12,779 nt of DNA from Thermoproteota archaeon (GTDB taxonomy: Archaea > Korarchaeota > Korarchaeia > Korarchaeales > Korarchaeaceae), in the NCBI GenBank assembly GCA_027491435.1, contig JAOZFG010000039.1:1-12779 (forward strand), written 5' to 3'. Below, one piece after another: positions 1-12,779 of the stretch (position 1 is the stretch's first letter; every line of letters starts with the position of its first letter). The notes below the pieces were generated by a model. That model was given only the letters and a program-made list of their open reading frames with translations, was not told the DNA's origin and made no database searches. The position numbers were made by a program, and so were the translations under genes.

Positions 1-20
1 GAAATCCTTTTTTAGGTAAG

Positions 21-1328
21 GTGAGAGGGCAGGTTGTGCGGAAGGAAAGACTGGCCCTCATGATAACCCTGCTGATAAGCTTGGCCATAGGCGTCGGCTT
101 CTCGGCGGCGATGCCCACCTTCCCTTACCTGGTCCTGGCCCTGAAGGGGGTGTTGAAGCAGCTCCCAGAGACTACAAAGGGGGTTATAATGGCCCACAAG
201 GGGGCTGTGGAGTTCGGAGCACTCATGGCAGCTTTCATGCTGTTCAGAGCTCCAGTAGCGGCGTTCTCAGGTACGTTGAGCGACCTCCTGGGCAGGAAGA
301 CCATGATACTCCTGGGAATGGTCATGTACACGGCTACCTCCCTGGGGATGCTCCTGGTGGACGACGTCCTGGGCTTGATAGCCCTGAGGGCGTTAACGGG
401 GGTGGCCTCAGGCATAACCTGGCCTGTGGCTGAAGCTTACCTGGCTGACGTGACCACGCCGCAGGAGAGGGGGAGGGCCATCTCCCTCTACATAATGACC
501 CAGAACCTGGGCGACGTAGTGGGCCCTGGCATAGGGGCGGGGGTCTACAAGCTTTACGTTCAGCTCTACGGGCCCGAGGATTACTTATTCGCCCTTAAAA
601 CGCCCTTCCTGTTAATGGGAGGGCTCAGCCTGGTGGCTACCGTCATGGCCCTGGCCTTGCCCAGGGTGGCTCCCTCCAAAGGCGTCAGGTCCGGTTTTAA
701 GGAACTAGTTAAGGTGCTTAGGTCCCTGCCCAGGGAGGTGGCCACCAGCGTGAAGGCCATCTACGTAAACGGAGTGGGAAATGGGCTGGCCATGGGGATA
801 ATGAACACGGCCCTCATAGTTTACGCTGTGGAGAGGGTCGTCAAGGATCCGGCGGTGATAGGGCTGGCCTTCACCCTGATGGGCATCACTGCCCTCCCGA
901 TGACACTTCTATCAGGATGGCTCAGCGACCGCTTCCAGAGGAGGAAGCCCTTCGTCCTGGCCAGCTACTTAGTTAGCAGGCCGGTCATATTCCTCATGCC
1001 CTTCCTGGCAGACGTCACCTCATTCATGCTGGCCCTGATAGCCTTCATGGCCGCCTTCAGCGTTGGGATGCCAATAATGAGGGCCCTCCAATCCGAGCTC
1101 ATAAGCTCGGAGGTGAGGGGCACGGTTTTCGGGGTTCAACAGCTCTTCTTCAACGCCGGCGTGGTCGTGGGCGCCTTGGTGGGGAGCTACCTGACTGCAG
1201 CGTACGCCCCCAGGGAGGTGATGGGCCTGACCGGGTACGTGGTTCCCTTCTGGCTGGCCGGAGTCCTGACGGTGCTGACCACGCTGATCTTCGCCTTCTA
1301 CGTGAAGGAGCCCGAGGTGAGGATGTGA
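21..1328 (+). CDS. MFS transporter (DHA1/drug:H+ antiporter-like)
   Basis: 435 aa, about 12 hydrophobic segments. MFS motif A in both halves (SGTLSDLLGRK; SGWLSDRFQRRK), motif B-like LRALTG, and YLADVTTPQERGRA. GTG start. Confidence 0.92.
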   Translation: MRGQVVRKERLALMITLLISLAIGVGFSAAMPTFPYLVLALKGVLKQLPETTKGVIMAHKGAVEFGALMAAFMLFRAPVAAFSGTLSDLLGRKTMILLGMVMYTATSLGMLLVDDVLGLIALRALTGVASGITWPVAEAYLADVTTPQERGRAISLYIMTQNLGDVVGPGIGAGVYKLYVQLYGPEDYLFALKTPFLLMGGLSLVATVMALALPRVAPSKGVRSGFKELVKVLRSLPREVATSVKAIYVNGVGNGLAMGIMNTALIVYAVERVVKDPAVIGLAFTLMGITALPMTLLSGWLSDRFQRRKPFVLASYLVSRPVIFLMPFLADVTSFMLALIAFMAAFSVGMPIMRALQSELISSEVRGTVFGVQQLFFNAGVVVGALVGSYLTAAYAPREVMGLTGYVVPFWLAGVLTVLTTLIFAFYVKEPEVRM

Positions 1329-1346
1329 TCGTTCATAGGACCGACG

Positions 1347-2036
1347 TCAGAGGCCTACCGTCCCCTGCCGCAGCCTCAGCATCCTCTCGACGTCGTCCGT
1401 TATCACCATGTAGGCAGGAATGGCGGGAACCAGCCTGGGGGCCCACTTCTGAAGCAGCTGGTCCTTCTCAGTCCACAACACCACCTTTTCCTTGAAGTTT
1501 AGGGGTACCCCGGTGAGAGCCAGCTCTACCGGAACGTGAACCGAGAAGAGCTCTCCGTTAAACAGGGAGAGGGGTTTCAAGTCCCCCTCAACCAGGAGGC
1601 CCATCCTCACCCTCCTGCAGGAGTTCCAGATCCTAAGGAGGGCCTCTGGATGGAAGGAGGAGAAGAGAACCCTGTCAAGGGCCCCTTCCTCCCTGACCAC
1701 CTGGAGGCTGGGAAGGGCGGCCTCAACCTCCTTCACCTCAACGTTTATGAGGCCCTCCACCTCCTCTAGGACCTCCCTGAGAGTTGGAACTTTTTGCCCC
1801 ATCCCCAGGCTGGCCTCCTTCACCTCCTTAAGGGTCTTATCCCTGACCCTCCCCCTCACGTTGGAGGTCCTGTCTAGGGTGGGGTCGTGGATCACCACCA
1901 CTTCCCCGTCTCTGGTGAGCCTTACGTCCAGCTCAACCCCGTCAGCTCCAGCCTTTACAGCCTCCCTGAAGGCGAGCAGGGTGTTCTCCGGGTAGCGGGC
2001 GCTGTACCCCCTATGTCCAAGGATCAGGAAGCGCAA
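1347..2036 (-). CDS. Glycerophosphodiester phosphodiesterase (GDPD/UgpQ family)
   Basis: GHRG...[42 protein letters not shown] and C-terminal ITDD motifs. TTG start overlapping the upstream ferredoxin gene. Confidence 0.93.
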
Positions 2037-2419
2037 GTTGACCCCCAGTTGTTCTTGAGGAACCTCCTAACGTGTTCTCTCTTAAAAACGAACCTAAGCC
2101 CGTACCTCTTGAAGGGTATCCTGAGAACGCTCTTCAAGAACCTGAGCAGCTCGATGCACTTCCCTCCAACGAGAACGTCAGACCTCCTTAAGGCTCCAGT
2201 TGGACAAGCCTCTACGCAGATGAAGCAGCCCCTGCAGGCCTGCGGGTTTGCGAAGACAGGCCTTAGCCTGACCTTTTCCCTGAATCCGAAGAGAGGCGCC
2301 CTTATAGGCCTTACCTCCCAGACGTCAAAGGGGCAGGCGGTTATGCACTCCTCTCCCCCTCCACAGGCTGGGTAATATATGTAGAGGGGCTTCGTGTTCA
2401 GGAGGTCCCTCCAGCTCAC
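2024..2419 (-). CDS. Dicluster Fe-S ferredoxin-like protein with basic C-terminal extension
   Basis: Canonical [12 protein letters not shown] motif and a degenerate [12 protein letters not shown] motif. GTG start 22 nt from a TATA-like element. Confidence 0.85.
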
Positions 2420-2472
2420 ACCCCGTCGGGGCGAGAGAAGTTAAAAAGTTACCCTGCACGTAGGGGGTGTGA
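2416..2472. promoter_or_regulatory. Symmetric bidirectional archaeal promoter
   Basis: TTAAAAA at 2441-2447 lies 22 nt from both divergent GTG starts (2419 and 2469). It is flanked by a perfect 9-bp inverted repeat TCACACCCC (2416-2424) / GGGGTGTGA (2464-2472). Confidence 0.6.
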
Positions 2473-3401
2473 TACCTGAGGGAATCATAAAGCCGGAGTT
2501 CGAGAGAAGGTATAGGGAGCTCATGGGCCCCGAGTACGAGCTCTTCCTCAAGTTCATGGCCACGAAGCCCAGGCCCACCATAAGGGTAAACCCCATGAAG
2601 GTCGATCCGGGCTGGCTCCTGGACAGGCTTGAGGGGGAGGGCTGGGAGCTCAAGCAGGTCCCCTGGTACGAGCACGGTTACTGGGTCTCAGGGGTTGAGA
2701 GGCCTGGGGGCACGAGGTGGCACGCCTTGGGCCTCTACTACGTCCAGGAAGCCGCTTCCATGATCCCTCCAGTAGCTTTGGATCTGGAGCCCGGGCTCAG
2801 GGTCCTGGACCTGGCGGCCGCCCCAGGCTCTAAGACGACCCAGATGTCTGAGATGATGGGGTGGAGGGGGTTAATCTACGCCAACGACGTCTCCCCAGAC
2901 AGGGTGGACGCTTTAGCGGCTAACGTGCAGAGGATGGGGAGCGTCAACGTCCTCATCTTCATGAGCGACGGTAGGAGGGCTGTCCAGACCTTCGGGAGGG
3001 AGAGGTTCGACAGGGTCCTTCTAGACGCCCCCTGCAGCTCCATAGGGGAGGTGAGGAGGAGCTGGGGGGCCTTGGCCAGGTGGAGCCCTAAAGCGGTCAA
3101 CAGGATATCCAGGTTACAGCTTAGCCTGGCCTTGGCGGCTTACGAGACGCTTAAAAGGGGCGGGGTGATGGTCTACTCCACCTGCACCCTGGAGCCTAAA
3201 GAGAACGAGTGGGTCGTGCACCAGCTGGTGGAGAGGGGAGCTTTAATAGAGAGGCCTGAGATAAAGGGGTTGAAATGGAGGCCCGGCCTGAAGAGGTGGA
3301 TGGATTGGGAGTTCCACGAGGACGTCCAGAAGACGGTGAGGGTGTATCCCCAGGACAACGACACCATAGGCTTCTACGTGGCGAAGCTGAGGAAGCCCTA
3401 G
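2469..3401 (+). CDS. NOL1/NOP2/Sun (RsmB/RsmF) family RNA m5C methyltransferase
   Basis: YYVQEAASMIPP, motif I VLDLAAAPGSKT, motif IV DRVLLDAPCS and motif VI VYSTCTLEPKENE, with both catalytic Cys present. Confidence 0.96.
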   Translation: MIPEGIIKPEFERRYRELMGPEYELFLKFMATKPRPTIRVNPMKVDPGWLLDRLEGEGWELKQVPWYEHGYWVSGVERPGGTRWHALGLYYVQEAASMIPPVALDLEPGLRVLDLAAAPGSKTTQMSEMMGWRGLIYANDVSPDRVDALAANVQRMGSVNVLIFMSDGRRAVQTFGRERFDRVLLDAPCSSIGEVRRSWGALARWSPKAVNRISRLQLSLALAAYETLKRGGVMVYSTCTLEPKENEWVVHQLVERGALIERPEIKGLKWRPGLKRWMDWEFHEDVQKTVRVYPQDNDTIGFYVAKLRKP

Positions 3402-3412
3402 TCCAGGAGTTC

Positions 3413-3793
3413 GTGTCCTTCCTGAGGGAGAGGTTCGGGTACGTGCCCGACCTGCACTTCTTCGCCTCAGGCAAGAGGAAGGTCAGGGCCGTGGTGAAGG
3501 AGGGGGCCGACGAGAGGGCCGACCTCAAGGGGGTCTACGTGGGGAAGAAGGCCCCTTACGGCTTCATAATAAGCGTGGAAGGCTCCTTCCTGGTGGGCAG
3601 GGGAGCTAAAAAAGGGATAATAGAGCTGAACGACGAGGAGTTTGACAGGTGGATGTCCGGCCAGGACCTGGAGCTCAGGGAGGACCTGCCCAAGGGCGTC
3701 TACATAGTGAAGTACCAGGAGGTGTTCGCGGGCTCCGGCTACTTCAACGGGAGGGTGCTCAAGAACCTGCTGCCCAGGGTCAGGATTCAGTGA
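3413..3793 (+). CDS. RsmF C-terminal-like / NIP7-PUA-like RNA-binding protein (start uncertain)
   Basis: Protein-like region FLRERFG...GVYVGK...ISVEGSFLVG...IIELNDEEFDRWMSGQDL...GVYIVKY...GSG...LKNLLP resembles the RsmF C-terminal pre-PUA/PUA region. The ORF-track start at 3275 overlaps the methyltransferase by 127 nt; in-frame GTG at 3413 is the likelier start. Confidence 0.75.
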   Translation: MSFLRERFGYVPDLHFFASGKRKVRAVVKEGADERADLKGVYVGKKAPYGFIISVEGSFLVGRGAKKGIIELNDEEFDRWMSGQDLELREDLPKGVYIVKYQEVFAGSGYFNGRVLKNLLPRVRIQ

Positions 3794-5303
3794 GCCGGTT
3801 CGCCCACTCCCTCAACCTCCTACCGACTCTCACGATCCCGCTTTCCCTATCAGCCTTGGGGTCAACCGTTATTAGGAAGAACGCCGTGTAGAGTACGAAG
3901 TAAGACGCCGTGTTAACGTACTTGTAGTCCCCGAAGGAGCCGAACGAGAAGTACCTGACGCTCACCCTGTCCCTCTCTACGTACCCCCCAATTGAATTGT
4001 AGCTCATGCCGTCGAAGACGCAGGCCGAGAACCACTTCCTACCCTCGCCGACCTTAATTGTGGCTAGCTGAGTTGAGCCCTCGACCTCCACCGGAGGGGT
4101 TGACTTCTCGAAACAATGGGAAGGTTTGTCGGAGACCCTCACCTCGTAGAACACCTTGTGGGGGTAGGGCTTGAGGCTCCTGTGGATTATCCTTATCTCA
4201 TCGAATGACATGTGCACGTCCCCGTTCACCTGAACGAACCTCCCATTGCGAACCCCGTAAACCCTGATCAGGGGGCTGTGGAAGCTGAACGCGTAGAAGT
4301 ACAGCGACAGGGCTAGCAAAGCCACCAGGGTTAAGGCCAGGATCCTGTCCCAGCGCCTTCTAATCAGGGCCCACAGGAGGAGCAGGGTCAGGGAGTAGAG
4401 GTTTAGCATGGGCGTGTACGAAAAGACAAGTAGGAGGGAGAGGCCAAGGTTTATCACGGGCCCTCCTGGAAAAAATACGGAGGAGGTCGCCAGCATCAGG
4501 GAGATTGAGAGGAGGATCGTTAGCGACATCAGGGCCCCTGTGAGGGGCCTGAGCCTGTAGACCAGCTCATCCTCCTCGGGGTACTCCTCCCTCTTCATCC
4601 TGGAGACGGCCCAGTCCACGATCAGGTAGATTGGGACGATGATCAGGAGGGTTAGCAGGATGTATTCCCTGAGGTAGTAGACCATGTACGAGTAAGAGGT
4701 GGAAAACTGCTTGTAGGTGACCCGGTAGAGGTCGCCATCCCTCTCTATGACTCCCTGCACCATGTAGTCCTCGTAATACTTAACCGGAACGCAGGCTGTA
4801 AAGTAGGTCACGTTTCCCACCGGCACGACCTCGCCGATAAGATCCCCCCTCCTGTAATTCACCGAGAAATCCCTGAACAGGCAGGGGATTGGGTCGCTGG
4901 AGTAGAACACCCTCCCCCCATGCGTGATAGGGATGTTCGATATTATCAGAAGGGAGTCCAGCTTTAGGAGGTCGCCGCTCCTAACTAGGAACACGTTACC
5001 CCTGTAAATGGCTGAAATCACGAAGGGTTCGGGTGAGACCTCGTTTTCTGACATGGAGAAGGCCCCTACGACTAGCAGTAACAGCAAGAGGGCTGCGACG
5101 TTCTGGGATTGATACCTGGTCAACTTCATGGTTACTACGGTGGAGAACCAGGAAACCAGCACCAGCAGGGAGATAAACACCAGAGGAGAGTCCTTCTCAG
5201 TATAAGGGAAGAGTATTGGCCTTCTCACTGCCCAGTTAACGGCTACCAACGTGATTACCGCCGATATCGCTATGTTCACCGCCGACAGCTGTGAGATTTT
5301 CAT
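3780..5303 (-). CDS. Hypothetical multi-pass membrane protein with two tandem homologous halves
   Basis: Long ORF with genome-typical codons and about 8 hydrophobic segments. ATG at 5303 is preceded by GGGGGT, with TTTTAGAG about 30 nt upstream (ORF track starts at TTG 5315). Internal repeat visible (FTACV / FSACV; GVIERD / GYVERD). Confidence 0.8.
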   Translation of the reverse strand: MKISQLSAVNIAISAVITLVAVNWAVRRPILFPYTEKDSPLVFISLLVLVSWFSTVVTMKLTRYQSQNVAALLLLLLVVGAFSMSENEVSPEPFVISAIYRGNVFLVRSGDLLKLDSLLIISNIPITHGGRVFYSSDPIPCLFRDFSVNYRRGDLIGEVVPVGNVTYFTACVPVKYYEDYMVQGVIERDGDLYRVTYKQFSTSYSYMVYYLREYILLTLLIIVPIYLIVDWAVSRMKREEYPEEDELVYRLRPLTGALMSLTILLSISLMLATSSVFFPGGPVINLGLSLLLVFSYTPMLNLYSLTLLLLWALIRRRWDRILALTLVALLALSLYFYAFSFHSPLIRVYGVRNGRFVQVNGDVHMSFDEIRIIHRSLKPYPHKVFYEVRVSDKPSHCFEKSTPPVEVEGSTQLATIKVGEGRKWFSACVFDGMSYNSIGGYVERDRVSVRYFSFGSFGDYKYVNTASYFVLYTAFFLITVDPKADRESGIVRVGRRLREWANRLTES

Positions 5304-5398
5304 CTCGACCCCCAACGGGTTTGCCCTCTAAAAGTTGATGCCCCGAAATTTCAGGCAGAGAAGGCGTCTGGGAGAGATAAGTTACAGGGAGAGACAAG

Positions 5399-5406
5399 TT
5401 TAAAAA
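5399..5406 (+). promoter_or_regulatory. TATA box candidate (TTTAAAAA) with purine-rich BRE-like upstream sequence
   Basis: GACAAG-TTTAAAAA. The expected + strand start site (~5429-5432) coincides with the left end of the intergenic element. It could instead serve the minus-strand membrane protein gene. Confidence 0.45.
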
Positions 5407-5431
5407 GCGCAGCCTGTTACCTGAAGACCCC

Positions 5432-5756
5432 GAGTAACGTAGGAGTACTCATAGCTCCTCAACCCCTGAAGAAAGCGCTTAGCGTGACACATTGGGAATG
5501 GAGCGTGAGGTGGCCTTAAGTTGACGGCCTCTCGGTTAAGTGTAAAGGTGATTAGTGTGTTGAGGGTCTCAAGCGATGAGTCAAGCGAGGGCAGCACCGT
5601 TCTGTTTATCCGCCACTTTTAAAACGTGTTAACCAATCTGGTGGATAACCTTCCAGCCTCTAATTGGCTTTCGGGAGGACGGTAATCCCACATCTTCAGG
5701 GCTTTTCAGCGGTCCCCATTCACTTACAAACCCCACTTGAGACCGCCACATTACTC
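5432..5756. other. Unexplained ~325 bp structured non-coding element (candidate ncRNA or MITE/IS remnant)
   Basis: Imperfect terminal inverted repeat GAGTAACGTAGGAGTACTCA vs GAGTAATGTGGCGGT-CTCA. Internal complementary pairs 5464-5472/5693-5701, 5565-5573/5736-5744, 5606-5615/5639-5648. No convincing ORF. Confidence 0.4.
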
Positions 5757-5835
5757 AAAAATAAAACTAAGAAATTAATTATGGAAAATAAAAGCCCATA
5801 AAAGTCATGAATTACTAATCATGAAACAGCCCATG

Positions 5836-5857
5836 CGTTATCCGATGATGAATAACG
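5836..5857. promoter_or_regulatory. ModE-like operator CGTTAT-N10-ATAACG upstream of tupA
   Basis: Perfect 6-bp inverted half-sites matching the CGTTAT/ATAACG core of ModE boxes, ending 35 nt before the start of an oxyanion ABC transporter operon and abutting the TATA-like GATATATC (5857-5864). Confidence 0.6.
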
Positions 5858-5891
5858 ATATATCTTTGCGCCCCCCGCGAGGAGGGGGAAC

Positions 5892-6761
5892 ATGAAGAAG
5901 TTGATCTCAGGCTTAGCCCTAATAGCAGTTGTCCTCCTGATCATAAGCCTTCCTAGGCACGAGGTTAGGGTTAGAGCTACTACCACCACCAGCCTCTACG
6001 CTACAGGCCTCCTAGACTACCTGGAGGAGAAGTTCAGGGAGAAAAATCCTTACGTGAGGGTAGACTTCATAGCCGTGGGAAGCGGGGAGGCCCTCAGGAG
6101 GGCTGCCAACGGGGACGCTTGCCTAGTTCTGGTGCACGCTCCCAGCCTGGAAAAGAAGTACTTGGACGAGGGCTCCATAACTGAGGGCAGGATTTTCGCT
6201 TACAACTACTTCGTGATAGCTGGCCCCTCAAATGACCCGGCAGGCGTTAAAGAAGCTAACAGCCCGGTGGAGGCCTTCGCCCTGATATACAAAGCTGGTC
6301 GGGAGGGCAAGGCTCTATTCGTGAGCAGAGGCGACAACTCCGGGACGCACGTCAAGGAGCTGAGCATCTGGAGGAAAGCCGGTTTGAAGCCCGAGGGAGG
6401 CTGGTACCTGGAGACGGGAAGCGGGATGGGGAACACCCTCCTGGTGGCCAACGAGAAGATGGGCTACGTCCTCACGGATCTGGGCACCTACCTGAAGTTC
6501 AAGAGGGAAGGGAAGCTGCCCAACCTGGAAGTCCTATTCCAGGGGGGTGAAGAGCTCCTAAACGTCTACAGCGTCTACCTGGTTTCGTCCTGTAAGGGGG
6601 AGGAGGCCAAAGCCGCTAGGGAGTTCGCTTCCTTCGTCGCCGAGGAGGCCCAGCCCCTAATAGGGGAGTACGGAAAGGAGTACGGGATGCCCCTATTCTA
6701 CCCGGCCCAGGGCAAGGAGGAGTGGCTCTCCTCAATGTGGAATAAGATGGCTGGTGGTTAG
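5892..6761 (+). CDS. tupA: Tungstate ABC transporter substrate-binding protein
   Basis: N-terminal membrane anchor, TupA signature ATTTTSLYATGLL, AVGSGEAL, VHAP, FVSRGDNSGTHVKE, GSGMGNTL, YVLTDLGTY, LLNVYSV. SD GGAGGGGG at 5881-5888. Confidence 0.95.
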   Translation: MKKLISGLALIAVVLLIISLPRHEVRVRATTTTSLYATGLLDYLEEKFREKNPYVRVDFIAVGSGEALRRAANGDACLVLVHAPSLEKKYLDEGSITEGRIFAYNYFVIAGPSNDPAGVKEANSPVEAFALIYKAGREGKALFVSRGDNSGTHVKELSIWRKAGLKPEGGWYLETGSGMGNTLLVANEKMGYVLTDLGTYLKFKREGKLPNLEVLFQGGEELLNVYSVYLVSSCKGEEAKAAREFASFVAEEAQPLIGEYGKEYGMPLFYPAQGKEEWLSSMWNKMAGG

Positions 6762-7397
6762 ATGCAGCTTGAGGTGGTGGTGAGGAGCCTAACCGTTTCC
6801 GGGACAGCCACGCTGCTAGCTGCCAGCTGGAGCGTTCCCCTAGCCTACTTTCTGGTGAAGTCCAGGTCCTCCAGGGTGCTGATCCCCCTCCTTGAGGGGC
6901 TCGTGGGAGTTCCAACCGTCTTGATAGGGCTCCTGCTCTACATGCTGCTGAGCAGCAAGGGGCCTTTAGGCCCCTTGAGGCTCCTGTACACCCCTCAGGC
7001 CATAGCTGTGGGCCAGTCCATCCTGATAACCCCCCTGATAACTTCGGTCTCCTACAGGGTTCTCACCCACTCCTGGGGCAGGTACGGGGAGCTGGCCCTC
7101 TCCCTGGGAGCCGATGAGGTCGAGGCGATGAGGTTGGTGCTCTCCGAATCCCTACCCGGCCTGCTGGGGGCTGTGATAATGGGCTTCTCCAGGGCGCTGG
7201 GGGAGCTGGGCATAGCTTTAATGGTCGGGGGGAACATAAAGGGGTACACGAGGGTCATGACCACCGCCATAGCCTTGGAGGTCTCTAAGGGGGAGTTCGA
7301 GCTCGCCACGTGGCTGGGCATCTTCCTAGTAGGGATAATAGCCCTTATCTCCCTGTCCCTCAGGTTCCTGGGGGTAAAAGATGATAGAACTCCGTGA
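6762..7397 (+). CDS. tupB: Tungstate ABC transporter permease
   Basis: RSLTVSGTA, GVPTVLIGL, GPLGPLRLLYTP, EAA-like loop ELALSLGA, GFSRALGELG, MVGGNIKGYTRVMTTAIALE. Confidence 0.95.
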   Translation: MQLEVVVRSLTVSGTATLLAASWSVPLAYFLVKSRSSRVLIPLLEGLVGVPTVLIGLLLYMLLSSKGPLGPLRLLYTPQAIAVGQSILITPLITSVSYRVLTHSWGRYGELALSLGADEVEAMRLVLSESLPGLLGAVIMGFSRALGELGIALMVGGNIKGYTRVMTTAIALEVSKGEFELATWLGIFLVGIIALISLSLRFLGVKDDRTP

Positions 7398-8061
7398 CGT
7401 CTGGTACAGGTACCCAGGAGGCCCTTGGGCGATCTCAGGGGTTAACCTGAGGTTTGAGGGCAGGCACGTGCTGGTGGGCCCAAACGGAAGCGGGAAGACC
7501 ACCCTGCTTAAGGTCTCCTCCTTAATCTACAGGCCGACTAGGGGGAAGGTCCTGGTTAACGGGGTGGACTTCTGGGGGCTTGACGGGAGGAGGCGTAGGG
7601 AGTTGAGGAGACAGGTCGTCTACGTCCACGAGAGGCCAATACTGATAAGGGGCACCGTCCTAGACAACCTGGCCTACCCGCTGATAATGAGGGGGTACAG
7701 TAGAGAGGAGGCCCTTAAAATAGGCAGAGAGGCCCTTTCCACAATAAACGCAGAACATCTAGCTGAGAAGAGGAGGAAGGAACTATCAACCGGTGAGGCT
7801 CAGCTCATATCGGTGCTCAGGGCCCTGATCCTGAGGCCCAAGGTTTTAATGTTGGACGAGCCCACGGCTCACCTGGACTTCGACAGGAGGGAGGTCCTGC
7901 TCAACCTGCTGAAGGGGGTCGAGGTTCTTATAGTGGCGACCCATGACCCCCTCCTGGTGGAGGAGCTTGGAGGCTCCCTGATCAGGATGTCCGGGGGAAG
8001 GGCCGAGTATGAAGGTGCTCATGATCTCTCCAAAGGCTTCTGGAGAAGGGGGAATAGCTAG
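7381..8061 (+). CDS. tupC: ABC transporter ATP-binding subunit of the tungstate transporter
   Basis: Walker A GPNGSGKTT, signature LSTGEAQ, Walker B/D-loop LMLDEPTAHLD, H-switch ATHD. Directly follows tupAB. Confidence 0.9.
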   Translation: MIELRDVWYRYPGGPWAISGVNLRFEGRHVLVGPNGSGKTTLLKVSSLIYRPTRGKVLVNGVDFWGLDGRRRRELRRQVVYVHERPILIRGTVLDNLAYPLIMRGYSREEALKIGREALSTINAEHLAEKRRKELSTGEAQLISVLRALILRPKVLMLDEPTAHLDFDRREVLLNLLKGVEVLIVATHDPLLVEELGGSLIRMSGGRAEYEGAHDLSKGFWRRGNS

Positions 8062-9043
8062 ACACGTTTCAACCCTTTCCAGGAAGCTCTCTGAGCTTGG
8101 ACATGAGGTAACCGTGATCTCGTGCACCGGGATGGGCTGGAGGGGAGTCAAGGACGTAAGGGTTAACTGCCTATCCAGAAAGGGTCTGGCGAACGTGAGC
8201 TTCATGTTCAGGGCCCTGTCAAGGATATCCGGGAAGTACGACGTGGTTCACGGGCACAACGCCCCTTCCGTTTTGCCTGTGGCTATAGCAAAGGCCAGGA
8301 AGAAGGTGATAACTATACACGGGCCCTACAGTCGGCAGGTCTCGACTTTACTTAAGCCTGGGGCCAAGTTCCTGGAGTGGCTCACCTTCAGGGTAGCCGA
8401 GGTGACCGTGGTGTCCAGGGCGACCCAGAGGTGGTACAGGGAGAGGGGGTACGAGCCCCTTTACGTCCCAAACGCTATAGATCCTGAGGACTTTCGGGGG
8501 GTGGATGAGGTCAGGCTTTTCAACCCACAGGTAGCCTACGTGGGGAGGATGTCCTGGGAGAAGGGGGTCGACCTGCTCGTTCAGGCCGTACCCAAGGTTG
8601 AGGCCGGCTTCGTCCTGGTTGGCGGGGGGCCCATGCTGGGCCACGTGAGGGAAAAACTGGAAGGCCTTGAAAACGTCGTGATAACAGGGGAGGTGAGCAG
8701 GAGGGAGGCCCTCGGCTACATTAAGGGCTCCGACCTCCTGGTTCTCCCGTCCAGGAGCGAGGGGTTAAGCACGGTGCTCCTGGAGGCCGGCTACCTGGAG
8801 GTGCCGGTGGTGGCATCCTCAATAGAGGAGAACAGGGAGGTTTTGAACGGTTACGCTCACCTATTCGACCTACATCCGGGCAGGGAGGTGGAAAACCTAG
8901 TTAAAGCCTTGAAAAAGGCGTTAAGCGAGGATAACGGGGAGAGGGTCAAGAAGCTCAAGGAGAGGATCGTCAACAACTACACGTGGGATGCCGCCCTTAA
9001 GCGCTACCTGAGGGTCTACGATGTGGGAGCTCAGGAGGGATGA
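8009..9043 (+). CDS. GT4 family (GT-B, retaining) glycosyltransferase
   Basis: MKVLMI...GGIARHV, YDVVHGH, VITIHG, VPNAID, YVGRMSWEKG and the EX7E motif PSRSEGLSTVLLEA. Confidence 0.93.
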   Translation: MKVLMISPKASGEGGIARHVSTLSRKLSELGHEVTVISCTGMGWRGVKDVRVNCLSRKGLANVSFMFRALSRISGKYDVVHGHNAPSVLPVAIAKARKKVITIHGPYSRQVSTLLKPGAKFLEWLTFRVAEVTVVSRATQRWYRERGYEPLYVPNAIDPEDFRGVDEVRLFNPQVAYVGRMSWEKGVDLLVQAVPKVEAGFVLVGGGPMLGHVREKLEGLENVVITGEVSRREALGYIKGSDLLVLPSRSEGLSTVLLEAGYLEVPVVASSIEENREVLNGYAHLFDLHPGREVENLVKALKKALSEDNGERVKKLKERIVNNYTWDAALKRYLRVYDVGAQEG

Positions 9044-9626
9044 GGCCCTCTCAAGGCTGGAGGAACACCTGAAGGCCGGCAGGGTGGACCAGGATATAGT
9101 GGACCTGTTGAGGCTCATAAACTCCTTGAGTTACGCTTTCACCACAAGCTCCTGTTCCGGGCGAATCCAGCTTTACGAGGCCAAGCTCCCTGGAAGCAAG
9201 TTCGACATGAGGACCACGGGCAAGTGGCACAGGCCCATCAGCTTGGAGGAGCTTAGGCCCCTCATAAAGGGAGAGAACCTGTGGCTTGCTGTCCTGCCCC
9301 CAATCCTGCACGTGTCGGTTAAGAGGGGTGAGGAGCTCAGGTTCCTCCAGCTCCTCAGGGATTCTGGGTTCAAAAGGGCCGGCATCATCTCCATCAGTGA
9401 GGACGAGGCCATAATAGAGGCCTCCGGCACGGAGAGGCTTGAGGCCCCCCTGATCTTAGAGGGGGTGAGGGTGTACAGGGATGAGGCCCTCCCCCTGTTG
9501 GTTGAGAGGGCCAACCAGTTACTGTTAAAATCCAAGGACAGGCTTCGAAGGTTGAAGGAGGTGCTCTCAGTTGAGGTTGCCGGAGGCCTGGATAATATCG
9601 GTGGGAAACGAGCTCCTGAACGGTAG
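9021..9626 (+). CDS. taw3: tRNA wyosine-pathway methyltransferase Taw3/Tyw3
   Basis: VDQDIVDLLRLINS, hallmark FTTSSCSGRI, KWH, PPILHV, SGFKRAGI, TERLEAPL. Confidence 0.93.
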   Translation: MWELRRDEALSRLEEHLKAGRVDQDIVDLLRLINSLSYAFTTSSCSGRIQLYEAKLPGSKFDMRTTGKWHRPISLEELRPLIKGENLWLAVLPPILHVSVKRGEELRFLQLLRDSGFKRAGIISISEDEAIIEASGTERLEAPLILEGVRVYRDEALPLLVERANQLLLKSKDRLRRLKEVLSVEVAGGLDNIGGKRAPER

Positions 9627-10365
9627 GATAACCAACACCAACCTCACCTGGCTGGCCAAGAGGCTTACAGTCATGGGCTACCTGGTTAGGGGGGCCATAA
9701 CGGTGCGTGACGAGTGTGAGGACATATCCTGGGCCTTCAGGACCGCCCTCTCTAAGGGGGCCTCCCTGATCCTCTCTACAGGCGGGCTAGGCCCCACCTT
9801 CGATGACAAGACCTCTGAGTGCCTCTCCAAGGCCCTGGGAAGGGAGTGGGTGGTTAACGAGGAGGCCCTTAAAATGGTGGAGGAGAAGTACAGGAGGGCC
9901 GGGCTCCCAATGACCGAGCACAGGGTTAAGATGGCCAGGATGCCCGAAAAGGCTGAGCCAATACCCAACAGGGTTGGTACTGCCCCTGGAATCCTCGTCA
10001 GGGAGGGACAGAGCCTCATAGTGGTCATGCCTGGAGTCCCGGCGGAGATGAAGGCCATATTCGAGGAGGTCGAGCCGCTCCTGAGGGAGAGGGCTCCCAG
10101 GCTGGAGATGGTCAGCGTTGACGTCATCATAAAGGGGGTTCCAGAGTCCAGCCTGGCGCCCGTTATAGAGAGGGCCATGAAGTCGGCAAACGTCTACGTA
10201 AAGAGCCATCCCTCCGGCAGGGAGGTTGAGGAGCCGGTGATAAGGTTGAACGTGGTGGCCTCGGCCCCCACCAGGGAGGAGGCGGTGGAAGAGGTCAAGA
10301 AGGCTTTGAAGGTGATATACGAGCACATGCCCCCTGGGGGCAGGGTAGAGGGTGAAGAGTGGTGA
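9571..10365 (+). CDS. CinA N-terminal / MocF-domain protein (COG1058 pyrophosphatase-like), no PncC domain
   Basis: IISVGNELLNGRITNTN, TGGLGPTFDDKT, KMARMP, PNRVGTAPG, MPGVPAEMKAIF, then a KH-like domain (GVPESSLAP, YVKSHP). TTG start at 9571 or 9577. Confidence 0.9.
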   Translation: MRLPEAWIISVGNELLNGRITNTNLTWLAKRLTVMGYLVRGAITVRDECEDISWAFRTALSKGASLILSTGGLGPTFDDKTSECLSKALGREWVVNEEALKMVEEKYRRAGLPMTEHRVKMARMPEKAEPIPNRVGTAPGILVREGQSLIVVMPGVPAEMKAIFEEVEPLLRERAPRLEMVSVDVIIKGVPESSLAPVIERAMKSANVYVKSHPSGREVEEPVIRLNVVASAPTREEAVEEVKKALKVIYEHMPPGGRVEGEEW

Positions 10366-11495
10366 TCCCCGGCTTTGAGATAACCCCCTGGCTTGTGAAG
10401 GGGGACAGGGTGGACTACAGGAAGGTCCTTTCCTACTTCAACCTGAGGCCGATAACCCCGGACGTTAGGAACATGATGAGGGACGCCTTCGGGGACGTGA
10501 ACTACTTGGTGAGGAGAGGCCTTTTCTTCGCCCACAGGGAGATGAGACAAGCCTTACTGGACCTGAAGTACAGGAGGAGAAGAGTGTACCTGTTCACAGG
10601 CAGGGGGGCCTCCGGCCCCATGCACATAGGCCACCTGGTCCCCTTGCTGTTGGCCAGGTGGATGCAGAGGAGGAGGAACCTGACTCTAATCTTCCAGATA
10701 TCCGACGACGAGAAGTTTGTTCTCAGGCCCAAGTTCACCTTGGAGCAGGTCAGGGTCTTCGCCAGGGACAACGCCCTGGACTTCCTGGCCCTGGGCTTCG
10801 ACCCGGATAGGACGAAGATAATATGGGACACGATGGTGGCGAGCTGGCTTTACCCCCTCACCCTCAAGGTGGCCAAGCACGTAAAGATAAGCGAGCTTAA
10901 GACGGTTGTCAAGATAGACGACAGCTGGAACGTCGGGATAGCCTTCTACATAGCTGTGCAGTCCCTCCCAGCCCTGATGTACGAGCTGGAGGTGGCCTTC
11001 CCCGTCAGGTCGATAGTGCCCATGGCCGTGGACCAGGACCCGATACTGAGGGTAGCCCAAAGGCTTGCTGACAGGCTGGGGCTGACTAAGCCAGCGTTGA
11101 TACACAGCAGGTTCCTGCCAGGCCTCAGGGGGGAGCCTAAAATGGGGGCCAGCAACCCCAAATCAGCAATATTCCTGACGGACGGGCCTGAGGAGGTTAA
11201 GGAGAAGGTTGAGGGGTCCAGCTGCGGGCCCCCTGAAATATGCCCCTCAGTCCAGTACCTGAAGGTCTTCGAGGAGGACGACCACGTTTTCTACAGCGTT
11301 TGGGAGCAGTGCTTAAAGGATAGAGTTCAGGGGTGTGATTTAGCCAAGAGGAAGCTCCTGGACATCTTAATACCCTTCATGGAGGAGCACCAAAGGCTGA
11401 GGAGGGAGTACCAGGACAAGGTGGATGAGTTCCTCATGAAGGAGCCGCCTAAAATGGAGGACCTGGGGGAGGGGCTACTGCCTCCTCATCATTAG
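10359..11495 (+). CDS. trpS: Tryptophanyl-tRNA synthetase-like protein (archaeal/eukaryotic type, divergent)
   Basis: RRGLFFAHR, LFTGRGASGPMHIGH, QISDDEKF, GFDPDRT, AVDQDP, KPALIHSRFLPGL, KMGASNPKSAIFLTD. Start GTG 10359 or 10362 after SD GAGGGTGA. Family is clear; canonical function is doubtful (see findings). Confidence 0.85.
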   Translation: MVIPGFEITPWLVKGDRVDYRKVLSYFNLRPITPDVRNMMRDAFGDVNYLVRRGLFFAHREMRQALLDLKYRRRRVYLFTGRGASGPMHIGHLVPLLLARWMQRRRNLTLIFQISDDEKFVLRPKFTLEQVRVFARDNALDFLALGFDPDRTKIIWDTMVASWLYPLTLKVAKHVKISELKTVVKIDDSWNVGIAFYIAVQSLPALMYELEVAFPVRSIVPMAVDQDPILRVAQRLADRLGLTKPALIHSRFLPGLRGEPKMGASNPKSAIFLTDGPEEVKEKVEGSSCGPPEICPSVQYLKVFEEDDHVFYSVWEQCLKDRVQGCDLAKRKLLDILIPFMEEHQRLRREYQDKVDEFLMKEPPKMEDLGEGLLPPHH

Positions 11496-12779
11496 GGCTG
11501 CCCCCAGGAGCATTAGGGCCAGCAGGGCTAATAGGATGAACCCTCCCCACCTCCCTTTCCCTCCCTCGTTACCTCCCTGGCCGCTCACCTCTAGGTTGCC
11601 AGTAGGCGTTTTCGTTTCCGTCAATTTTTCTGAAGTCGTGCTCCTCCAGGCCTCTTCAGTTCTAGTCAGGCCTCCCCCTTCAACAGTTTTCACGCTACCC
11701 CCTTCGCCGTTGACCTTCGCCATTCCATCCTGGGTGGGGACCTCACTCCCTTCCTTAATCCCTCCCTCAATTTCTATGGTCGTAGCGTCTCCAACCGCTT
11801 GGGTGTCGGGGTTATCGGTCAGCAGGTCCCTCTTAACCCCCTGACCCACCACCTCAACCTCGCCCTGCAGCTGGTACTTTCCGGGTTTCCCGTTAACCGA
11901 TAAGGTAAGCTTCCTGATGGACCAGGGTGGTAAGTCAACCTTCCAGATCAGGGGGCTCAGCCTAACCACCTCGCCCCTGCTGGCGTAGAACGAGGTAACT
12001 GAGAGGTCCCTTAAGTCCAGCCTGACGGTCGCGTTGAGAGCAGCGTTCCCCAGGTTCCTCAAGGTTATCAGGAGCTTCCTGTTCAAGGACTTCAGATAAG
12101 CTCTCACGTTAACCACGGGTTCAACCCTGAATAGGGCTTTGGAACCATCAAGGGAGACCAAGCACTCCTCCCCGGCCAGCGCTTTCTTCGGAGGGGTTAC
12201 CGAGAGGTAGCCGGACCTCAGGCTTACGTTCCACCCCTCGCACCCCTTGAACTCCGTGGAGTTAACCCTAACCTTGAGCTCCTCTCCTGGCTTGACGTTG
12301 AAGACGGCCCACTGGACCTTCGTCACCGTCGGGTCACCCAGGGACTTGGTGCTTGGGTCGTCGCTGAGCACCTCATGCGAGGCACAGGAGGGGGATAGGC
12401 ACTCTGCCCTCCCCTGGGCGACCAGGTCCTCGCCCAGGGATAAGTTAACTACCTTCACCACGAAGGTGACGTTCACCCCCTCAACCCCCACCTGGCCCTC
12501 CCAGCTTATGGAGCCGTTCAGGACCTCGTAATCCCCTGATGTGGCGGTCAAGTTGACTAGCCTAGTTCCCCTGGGTATCGGGTTCTCATAGCTTACCTTA
12601 ACCTTGCAGGAGCTCCTTAAAGTGGCGTTGTACCTAACGTAGTCCCCGAGCTCTAACGGTGGGCCGTCCAAGTCTTTGTAGTCTAGTTGGGCCCTCAGGT
12701 AACAGGTTTCCTCCCCAGCCTCCTTGGCGTATAGGAAGACCCTGGCCTGGTCCCCCTTCACCGGGTCGCTGAGCGATTC
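11475..12779 (-). CDS. Cell-surface protein with DUF11-like Ig-type repeats, Thr/Glu/Gly-rich linker and C-terminal membrane anchor (5' end outside window)
   Basis: Frame is open to the window edge (ESLSDPVKGD...). DUF11-like pattern LGDYVRYNATL...NPIPRGTRLV...SISWEG; repeated DDP/DNP motifs; 8 N-X-S/T sequons; terminal hydrophobic helix followed by RRQ. Confidence 0.8.
   Translation of the reverse strand, partial: ESLSDPVKGDQARVFLYAKEAGEETCYLRAQLDYKDLDGPPLELGDYVRYNATLRSSCKVKVSYENPIPRGTRLVNLTATSGDYEVLNGSISWEGQVGVEGVNVTFVVKVVNLSLGEDLVAQGRAECLSPSCASHEVLSDDPSTKSLGDPTVTKVQWAVFNVKPGEELKVRVNSTEFKGCEGWNVSLRSGYLSVTPPKKALAGEECLVSLDGSKALFRVEPVVNVRAYLKSLNRKLLITLRNLGNAALNATVRLDLRDLSVTSFYASRGEVVRLSPLIWKVDLPPWSIRKLTLSVNGKPGKYQLQGEVEVVGQGVKRDLLTDNPDTQAVGDATTIEIEGGIKEGSEVPTQDGMAKVNGEGGSVKTVEGGGLTRTEEAWRSTTSEKLTETKTPTGNLEVSGQGGNEGGKGRWGGFILLALLALMLLGAALMMRRQ

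Follow-up and report, generated by a model that had tools for sequence, protein, structure and literature searches.

Introduction

What becomes of a tryptophanyl-tRNA synthetase (TrpRS) that has lost the part of its structure that reads the anticodon, when the same genome encodes a second and complete TrpRS? This question is raised by a 12,779-nucleotide stretch of archaeal DNA, analyzed at its full length and here called the window (assembly GCA_027491435.1, contig JAOZFG010000039.1, positions 1 to 12,779 of the forward strand, family Korarchaeaceae). The last plus-strand open reading frame (ORF) of the window, at 10359..11495, encodes a TrpRS-like protein, hereafter the paralog. A first-pass annotation, made from the letters alone, had described it as a candidate repurposed synthetase from which roughly 14 residues of the anticodon-reading loop are missing; when the DNA was re-read, the coordinates and residues in that annotation were all correct. 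This study found that the residues are indeed missing, that the gap is common to a whole family of paralogs, and that a canonical TrpRS is encoded in the same genome. The inference of a repurposed second copy drawn in the annotation is thereby supported in part. The paralog may be a displaced native TrpRS that now adenylates tryptophan, with the reading of the anticodon lost and the acceptor site altered, an explanation to which we give a probability of about 0.45.

New enzymes have arisen repeatedly from synthetase paralogs, for example GluQRS, PoxA, HisZ, and the ancestors of the cyclodipeptide synthases. To our knowledge, no TrpRS-derived new enzyme is known from archaea, and a literature search by titles and abstracts found no published account of a korarchaeal TrpRS paralog.

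A TrpRS-fold protein without the anticodon-reading loop

The window gene is a TrpRS-fold protein. It encodes 378 aa if read from the GTG at 10359 or, more likely, 377 aa from the GTG at 10362; the second start gives MIPGF..., agrees with the database entry P0002 and with all relatives, and is probably the true one. It overlaps the TGA stop of the upstream CinA-like gene. The G+C content at third codon positions is 0.80. The Pfam domain of the protein is PF00579 (class-I W/Y synthetase, 2e-24), and every NCBIfam TrpRS equivalog model was matched, always under its curated cut-off (320 against 478 bits for NF008927, 280 against 644 for NF008924, and 169.4 against 176.75 for TIGR00233). The AlphaFold2 model has a predicted local distance difference test score (pLDDT) of 93, and in a Foldseek search with this model at least the top 40 matches were all TrpRSs, with template modeling (TM) scores of 0.75-0.86. 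By Pfam and Foldseek, a class Ic Rossmann-fold catalytic domain is present within a TrpRS-like overall fold. When the PDB sequences were searched with phmmer, the paralog aligned end to end with the Pyrococcus horikoshii enzyme (3jxe, 6e-66) and with human TrpRS.

The likeness to these canonical enzymes is extensive (3jxe and human 2quh/2ake; TM 0.84-0.86, 33-35% identity). It includes the N-terminal TPWEV hairpin, which is invariant in the paralogs, the HIGH signature (10623..10634) and the DDEK motif (10704..10715), both confirmed where the first-pass annotation had placed them, the (A)xDQ motif, the Lys-Met of the KMSKS loop, an equivalent of Lys431, and the Trp-pocket residues Gln194, Glu199, Gln284, and Gln313 (human numbering, mapped by eye from the phmmer alignment).

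The paralog departs from the canonical enzymes after the KMGAS loop (11139..11153), its equivalent of KMSAS/KMSKS. Three independent alignments agreed on a gap of exactly 14 residues at the same spot: phmmer (against 3jxe and human 2quh/1ulh), MAFFT (66 rows), and hhalign (paralog profile against canonical profile). In the phmmer alignment, a single gap of this length opens directly after ...KEKVEG; in the hhalign alignment it separates KVEG from SSCG and faces FAFTGGRATAKEQR in the co-resident canonical TrpRS. The window reads KEKVEGSSCGPPEICPSVQY at 11199-11258, and the deletion junction lies between G286 and S287 (11216/11217). The missing part is the α10-α11 loop together with helix α11. 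A short linker, GSSCGPPEICP (11214..11246), replaces the loop, the helix, and the GG turn of canonical TrpRS. In the AlphaFold2 model, helix α10 of the paralog (residues 277-285) is followed by a 10-residue linker (286-295) and then by α12 (296-304), whereas the model of the canonical copy (pLDDT 91) has α10 at 271-281, a loop at 282-289, an extra helix at 290-296, and α12 at 304-313.

The gap is a family character and not a chance event, because in the MAFFT alignment the loop segment is missing from every one of the 17 paralogs, and each of the 48 canonical TrpRSs has it. The canonical set takes in 18 rows from Korarchaeia, including the very divergent sole TrpRSs of three other genera (labeled g2, g3, and g7). 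A short loop shared by sole-copy orthologs, which the first-pass annotation had named as evidence against repurposing, was thus found in none of the 48. The replacement linker has conserved positions of its own: across 23 family members, S287 and P296 are invariant, and C289 occurs in at least 90%.

The annotation had also claimed that the lost segment contacts the CCA anticodon, and passages on human TrpRS agree with this: F377, S378, G380, R381, D382, I384, and H387 contact C34/C35/A36, and helix α11 is critical for the recognition of C34 (PMC1538984). All seven of these residues, out of 11 anticodon contacts in the human enzyme, fall inside the missing stretch. For the TrpRS of Aeropyrum pernix, a review gives C34 and C35 as main identity elements (PMC9976931).

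Downstream, the (T/C)GExK element at the start of α14 reads CDLAK (11334..11348), with Gly changed to Asp as the annotation had noted; hhalign matched C326 to the T427 position, D327 to G428, and K330 to human K431. The K330 column was invariant in 63 sequences and was aligned to the canonical Lys by both hhalign and phmmer; G325, C326, and K330 were invariant in 23 paralogs. K431 is a contact of C35, described in the same source passages as strictly conserved in all TrpRSs (PMC1538984). The invariance of its equivalent suggests that the anticodon pocket was cut down and not wholly abandoned. The linker residue Cys289 and the invariant Cys326 are the only cysteines common to both paralog subclades. 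A disulfide or a partial metal site made by this pair could fasten the linker to α14 beside Lys330.

Catalytic, substrate-pocket, and tRNA-end residues

The functional residues of the paralogs (9 + 8 sequences) were tabulated against the 48 canonical rows. Kept in all 17 paralogs were G161, H170, G172, Q194, E199, Q284, D312, Q313, K349, M350, and D99. The last of these is D19 in the window protein, within D19-Y-R-K22 (10413..10424), which corresponds to D99...K102 of helix α1′; the lysine of this element varies (K/A/E/V/R/I). In human TrpRS, D99...K102 reads the discriminator base A73, according to passages of PMC1538984. The segment Q113-I-S-D-D-E-K119 (10695..10715) supplies the Trp-pocket equivalents of Gln194, Thr196 (here Ser), Glu199, and Lys200. 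Three positions are changed throughout the family: Y159 is Phe, T196 is Ser, and position 309 is Met (C309M) in 17/17. The first of these is F79 of YLFTGRG (10587..10607), where 42 of the 48 canonical rows have Tyr.

Other changes lie at the site for the tRNA 3′ end. In the remodeled CP1 segment VVKIDDSWN (10905..10931), which replaces the canonical (I/V)FGF that holds C75/A76, G268 is Lys in all 17 paralogs (Gly in 48/48 canonical rows) and F267 is V/L/T/I. In the AIDQ-type motif DQDPIL (11031..11048), D312 and Q313 are invariant, and Ile and Leu replace Tyr316 and Phe/Trp317. Across the 17 paralogs, Y316 (Tyr in 36 and His in 12 canonical rows) has become an aliphatic residue (L/I/M), F/W317 reads M/L/I/A, and R321, an Arg in 46/48 canonical rows, is non-basic (V/Q/I/L); R318, present in 48/48 canonical rows, is lost in 11 of the 17. 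In the passages on the human complex, C75/A76 are bound by G265-G268 and Y316, and R321 makes contact with the backbone of the acceptor stem (Shen et al. 2006, PMC1538984).

At the ATP site, K and M of the KMGAS loop are invariant, and S351, a Ser in 48/48 canonical rows, is Gly in 17/17 paralogs. This serine is crucial for the α/β phosphates of ATP in human TrpRS (PMC2275098). The statement of the first-pass annotation that HIGH and DQDP are intact holds for the window sequence and fails for 8 of 17 relatives, a deep subclade that has HIGN (H173N) and DQHP (D314H), with the equivalents of H170 and G172 still invariant. HIGN is no proof of inactivity, since bacterial TrpRS is active although it has TIGN at this place.

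Taken together, these comparisons suggest an adenylation core that is largely kept (S351 aside), an anticodon reader that was excised, and a site for the tRNA 3′ end that was rebuilt. The replacements at the A76/C75 and ATP sites point further from ordinary tRNA charging than the loss of the loop alone.

A canonical TrpRS in the same genome

The source genome (1.64 Mb, 43 contigs, 99.5% complete) contains three PF00579 genes: a TyrRS (NF006330, 379 bits), a canonical TrpRS, and the window paralog. The canonical TrpRS (393 aa) lies on the minus strand at L002:1387-2568, which is G000:C5 at about 181.0-182.2 kb. It scores 723 bits against the cut-off of 644 for NF008924, passes three NCBIfam models, and carries the full AFTGGRATAKEQREKGG segment. 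The second, canonical trpS for which the first-pass annotation had proposed a genome search is therefore present, and the paralog is not the sole trpS of this nearly complete genome.

Forty genomes of the class were searched, 21 from the genus of the window and 19 from six other genera. The paralog was found in 19/21 genomes of the genus and in 0/19 of the others. Both copies occur in 17 of the 21 (one canonical copy being a contig-end fragment), and the two genes share one contig in G011, G017, and G028. The paralog stands alone in G023 (96% complete) and G029 (63%), the canonical gene stands alone in G014 (92%), and neither was found in G021 (70%). In a protein search, about 23 clusters were 45-100% identical to the paralog, followed by ordinary TrpRSs at 41% or less. 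A profile of 23 paralogs, run against 1.84 billion representatives, gave a single family-type match (753 bits), with the next at 338 bits. NCBI labels two of the clusters "hypothetical protein [Candidatus Korarchaeota archaeon]", and JGI labels one "tryptophanyl-tRNA synthetase".

Elsewhere in the class, the only TrpRS detected in g2, g3, and g7 (L033-L035, L043, L031-L032) is extremely divergent, with 27-32% identity to the paralog and stems of 1.3-2.0 substitutions per site. These proteins keep the full anticodon loop and the four-Cys motif; the g2 and g3 rows have KMSKR instead of KMSAS.

Origin of the two copies

An unrooted tree of 65 rows was built with IQ-TREE (LG+C20+F+G4, posterior mean site frequency), and quick trees gave the same topology. 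All paralogs fall in one clade (support 100/100), whose stem is 1.78 substitutions per site long. This clade is nested in a group supported at 98/89 that also includes the sole TrpRSs of two further Korarchaeia genera (g5 and g6), along with a small number of other archaeal sequences. The canonical copies of the genus group with Thermococcales (100/99). In the window genome, the canonical TrpRS is 77-79% identical to Thermococcus and Palaeococcus enzymes and stands apart from the sole TrpRSs of the other genera. When the paralogs were forced together with their co-resident canonical copies, 95.6 units of log-likelihood were lost and the approximately unbiased (AU) test gave p = 6e-7 for this group, which was named after the tree had been seen. 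A recent duplication within the genus was ruled out by the test and the tree.

The simplest reading is that the paralog would derive from the lineage's own TrpRS and that the canonical copy arrived by a transfer involving Thermococcales. As judged from the tree, this indicates that a housekeeping TrpRS may have crossed between phyla, in either direction; the direction is not fixed because Thermococcales nest among the copies of the genus in the unrooted tree. The sole TrpRS genes of g5 and g6 have no TYW3 or MoCF gene within about 4 kb, and synteny therefore speaks neither for nor against a shared locus.

Selection and conservation

The paralog is under purifying selection and is not decaying. 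By the Nei-Gojobori method, applied to within-subclade pairs with a synonymous divergence (dS) of 0.1-1.2, the ratio of nonsynonymous to synonymous divergence (dN/dS) was 0.02-0.17 for the paralog and 0.035-0.12 for the canonical copy. The earlier impression that the gene does not look decayed is borne out by these values, which disfavor decay. The paralog lineages are only 46-63% identical to each other, and the ORF is intact in 18 of 19 carrier genomes. Amino-acid differences accumulate faster in the paralog than in the canonical copy, by a median factor of 2.5 (0.7-3.2) over 15 pairs among six two-copy genomes. Between the two paralog subclades, identity is highest in the KMSKS region (0.74), falls to 0.35 in the linker, and is lowest in α12-13 (0.28). 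Conservation among the canonical enzymes peaks in the loop region, at 0.62 against 0.60 overall.

In the single-contig genome G011, the paralog ORF (L022, G011:C1:387237-388235, minus strand) stops at 336 aa, and the last ~30 conserved residues lie in another frame. Either a frameshift or a sequencing error accounts for the break; an intact, near-identical version of 361 aa exists (P0022).

Genomic context, tRNA(Trp), and tryptophan supply

The paralog ends a same-strand run that starts with TYW3, a wyosine-pathway tRNA methyltransferase gene (9021..9626, plus strand, PF02676), and continues with the CinA-like MoCF_biosynth gene (9571..10365, plus strand, PF00994), whose TGA overlaps the paralog's GTG. 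The same gene order was seen in all 15 relatives that have sufficient flanking sequence. In relatives, a HAD/Acid_PPase gene (PF12689, MDP-1-like, ~165 aa) sits between the CinA-like gene and the paralog, as at L007:999-1496, L012:903-1415, and L018:1020-1496, with ends that overlap or abut the neighbors. The window has no such gene, a search of this genome with the relatives' query did not find one either, and the phosphatase was for this reason dropped as an obligate partner. Among these neighbors (TYW3, the CinA-like gene, and the HAD gene elsewhere), there is no carrier protein or evident acceptor.

A single tRNA(Trp)(CCA) gene was found (G000:C35:19517-19653, plus strand). It has an encoded CCA end and the identity elements normal for archaea (A73, G1:C72, and CCA). 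The gene scored only 27 bits with Rfam and was missed by ARAGORN. Its two introns lie in the D-loop region and at 37/38; the first contains GATGA (box C-like) and the second CTGA (box D-like). No second tRNA(Trp)-like gene and no stop or unusual anticodon was found among 40 ARAGORN and 45 Rfam matches and in a T-arm/acceptor scan, a census that is incomplete, as no tRNA(Met) was detected. All ORFs of the window read through under translation table 11.

TrpA (PF00290) and IGPS (PF00218) were not found in the 99.5%-complete genome, and both were matched in 14 of 14 control genomes. The supply of tryptophan is therefore probably external, by import, and the organism is probably a tryptophan auxotroph.

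Elsewhere in the window, an RsmB/F-type RNA methyltransferase (PF01189 + PF17125) is followed by the PUA-like domain (PF13636) expected at its C terminus, at 2469-3401 and 3275-3793 on the plus strand. The parts lie in two overlapping ORFs in different frames, which could be a frameshift of the gene or an assembly error.

Discussion

The explanation that we prefer is that the paralog is a neofunctionalized descendant of the lineage's own TrpRS, with the housekeeping charging of tRNA(Trp) carried out by the second, Thermococcales-type enzyme. The protein keeps the class-I adenylate machinery: the HIGH signature, Lys-Met in the KMSKS loop, R82 and K119, and the Asp-Gln pair of the AIDQ motif. 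A substrate like tryptophan would still meet Gln113, Glu118, Gln201, and Gln226 in its pocket. The elements wrapped around the CCA anticodon, a loop and a helix, are gone, and the surface for C75/A76 is rebuilt. The anatomy, the family pattern, the second copy, the selection, and the position in the tree are shown by the data. From the kept core, the lost anticodon wrap, and the rebuilt surface, we infer that the enzyme most likely activates tryptophan or an indole analogue and that its acceptor is chosen blind to the anticodon. Adenylation and tryptophan as the amino acid are part of what is deduced in this way, and so is the type of acceptor: it may be a tRNA recognized only through its acceptor end and the retained Lys330, or it may not be a tRNA.

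GluQRS/YadB, PoxA/GenX, and the amino acid:carrier-protein ligases keep an adenylation core, have lost or ignore anticodon recognition, and coexist with a true synthetase. The paralog has the same hallmarks, as a functional analogy and not as homology. Enzymes of the GluQRS/PoxA type usually lack the whole anticodon-binding domain, whereas the paralog keeps this domain and only its reading loop is excised. The alternative acceptor of such ligases is often encoded close to them; none stands out among the neighbors of the paralog. We know of none among GluQRS, PoxA, and these ligases that derives from TrpRS. A bolder proposal, which we regard as doubtful, is that the paralog is an anticodon-blind, TrpRS-derived archaeal ligase whose parent, the native enzyme, was displaced by a horizontally acquired one. 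It would pass Trp-AMP or the adenylate of an indole analogue to a non-translational acceptor, which might be a protein, a small molecule, or the end of an RNA bound through the remodeled K185/DQDP(I/L) pocket.

Several points weigh against the preferred explanation of a displaced native enzyme that adenylates tryptophan for an altered acceptor. S351 is Gly in 17 of 17 paralogs, and adenylation by the paralog is therefore not assured. Phe79 is no argument against tryptophan and none for a new substrate: Tyr159 binds the Trp indole, but the human Y159F change costs only ~7-fold and bacterial TrpRS has Phe there, as passages of PMC1538984 report. The invariant equivalents of K431, with G325-C326 beside it, and D99 fit continued binding of tRNA(Trp). 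G023 has the paralog and TyrRS only, without a canonical TrpRS even as a fragment; if this absence is real, the paralog must charge tRNA(Trp) there. The G023 contig ends ~5 kb before the syntenic position of the canonical gene (as placed in G017), and the absence may be an assembly gap. The window contig (G000:C1) has a G+C content of 57.5% against 51.8% for the bin, the second highest of the 43 contigs, and is the only one of 211 12-kb segments with a G+C content of at least 57%; the co-residence of the two copies in this genome therefore rests on binning. The group used for the AU test, as stated above, was chosen with the tree in view.

The main rival is that the paralog is a true auxiliary TrpRS, charging tRNA(Trp)(CCA) through A73/G1-C72 and a contact of Lys330 with C35. 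It might serve as a reserve copy, as an isozyme under different regulation, or as a form that a natural TrpRS inhibitor does not affect. We consider this rival unlikely on balance. The invariant K330 (K431), D19 (D99), and TPWEV hairpin speak for it, as do the helical domain, which is retained whole and folded with confidence in the AlphaFold2 model, the G023 genome without a detectable canonical copy, and the single tRNA(Trp) gene with its normal identity set. Bacteria offer a likeness in divergent second TrpRS genes, such as TrpRS II of Deinococcus radiodurans (1yi8/2a4m) and the indolmycin-resistant copies, and paralogs of the TrpRS II type still charge tRNA(Trp). These enzymes differ in being bacterial-type, and 1yi8/2a4m are weak phmmer matches to the paralog (~2e-10). 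The passages of PMC5388404 on synthetase paralogs document divergent copies, TrpRS among them, that confer resistance to natural inhibitors; in the literature consulted, no loss of the anticodon loop is recorded for the bacterial copies. Against an auxiliary role stand the deletion of seven anticodon contact residues in an enzyme class where C34 and C35 can be major identity elements, as stated for A. pernix in PMC9976931, and the replacement in every paralog of A76/C75-site residues and R321 that are invariant in 46-48 of the 48 canonical rows. The faster evolution of the paralog (median 2.5-fold over the 15 genome pairs) and its scores under all of the NCBIfam equivalog cut-offs argue in the same direction.

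A non-catalytic pseudo-synthetase, binding tryptophan or tRNA as a regulator or sensor in an organism unable to make tryptophan, is improbable. S351G in all paralogs, H173N and D314H in 8/17, and the loss of R318 in 11/17 would suit such a protein, and with TrpA and IGPS not found, external tryptophan might need sensing. Ten core catalytic and pocket residues are nevertheless invariant, and the KMSKS region is the best conserved part between the subclades (0.74), which is more than mere binding should need. PDB entry 3hzr, by its title a TrpRS homolog of Entamoeba, was among the phmmer and Foldseek matches; we take it to be a pseudo-enzyme TrpRS.

Still less probable, in our view, is that the paralog reads another tRNA or anticodon, as the first-pass annotation had suggested among its options, such as a tRNA(Trp) variant altered at position 34 and used for recoding or ambiguous decoding. 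Helix α11, which serves C34 recognition, is gone while the C35-contacting Lys is kept, and the linker has its own invariant S287 and P296 and near-invariant C289, a combination that would fit a new reading of position 34; but the tRNA census, itself incomplete, turned up neither a further gene resembling tRNA(Trp) nor an unusual anticodon, and every window ORF is open under table 11. A redundant relic heading for loss after its replacement by the acquired gene has the least chance of all and is disfavored: its faster evolution, its absence from G014 (92% complete), the C-terminal frameshift in G011, and the looser conservation where its anticodon domain ends in a tip are outweighed by an ORF intact in 18/19 carriers, the low dN/dS across such divergent lineages, the family-specific invariant residues, and a conserved place in a same-strand gene run with overlapping stop and start.

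The two copies can also be compared with the [4Fe-4S] TrpRS of Thermotoga maritima (2g36), whose motif, C-x(21-24)-C-x6-C-x2-C, lies in the anticodon-binding domain; in organisms with several TrpRS genes, only one has it, according to passages of PMC2954223. This rule holds here. The canonical copy has C-x23-C-x6-C-x2-C at the same place, whereas the paralog has C-x5-C-x22-C-x7-C, which retains three of the four motif positions and adds a new Cys upstream, and 8 of 17 paralogs keep only two Cys. Other TrpRS-like proteins also lack the xGG loop and α11 after KMSxS (representatives P0255, P0271, P0293, P0296, P0315, P0325, P0376, and P0241, the last at 401-793). They are not close to the paralog (at most 338 bits against 753 for the family), and they differ in their accompanying changes: most keep Y159, F267, G268, Y316, F317, R321, and S351 (R318 mostly), and they mostly lose K431. 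The anticodon loop has therefore been lost several times among TrpRS-like proteins.

In sum, this study found a korarchaeal TrpRS-fold protein that lacks the anticodon-reading loop and is maintained by selection beside a canonical TrpRS. If the paralog is a sluggish backup TrpRS, the interest of the case is modest. The protein is a candidate scaffold for charging that does not depend on the anticodon, a property of interest in genetic-code expansion. The same genomes hold a working enzyme and a sister without the anticodon reader whose adenylation site is still under selection. With this clean natural experiment, the share of tRNA(Trp) identity that the α10-α11 loop carries in an archaeal-type enzyme could be tested, and it may provide a dated case of the fate of a native synthetase after its displacement by a foreign one.

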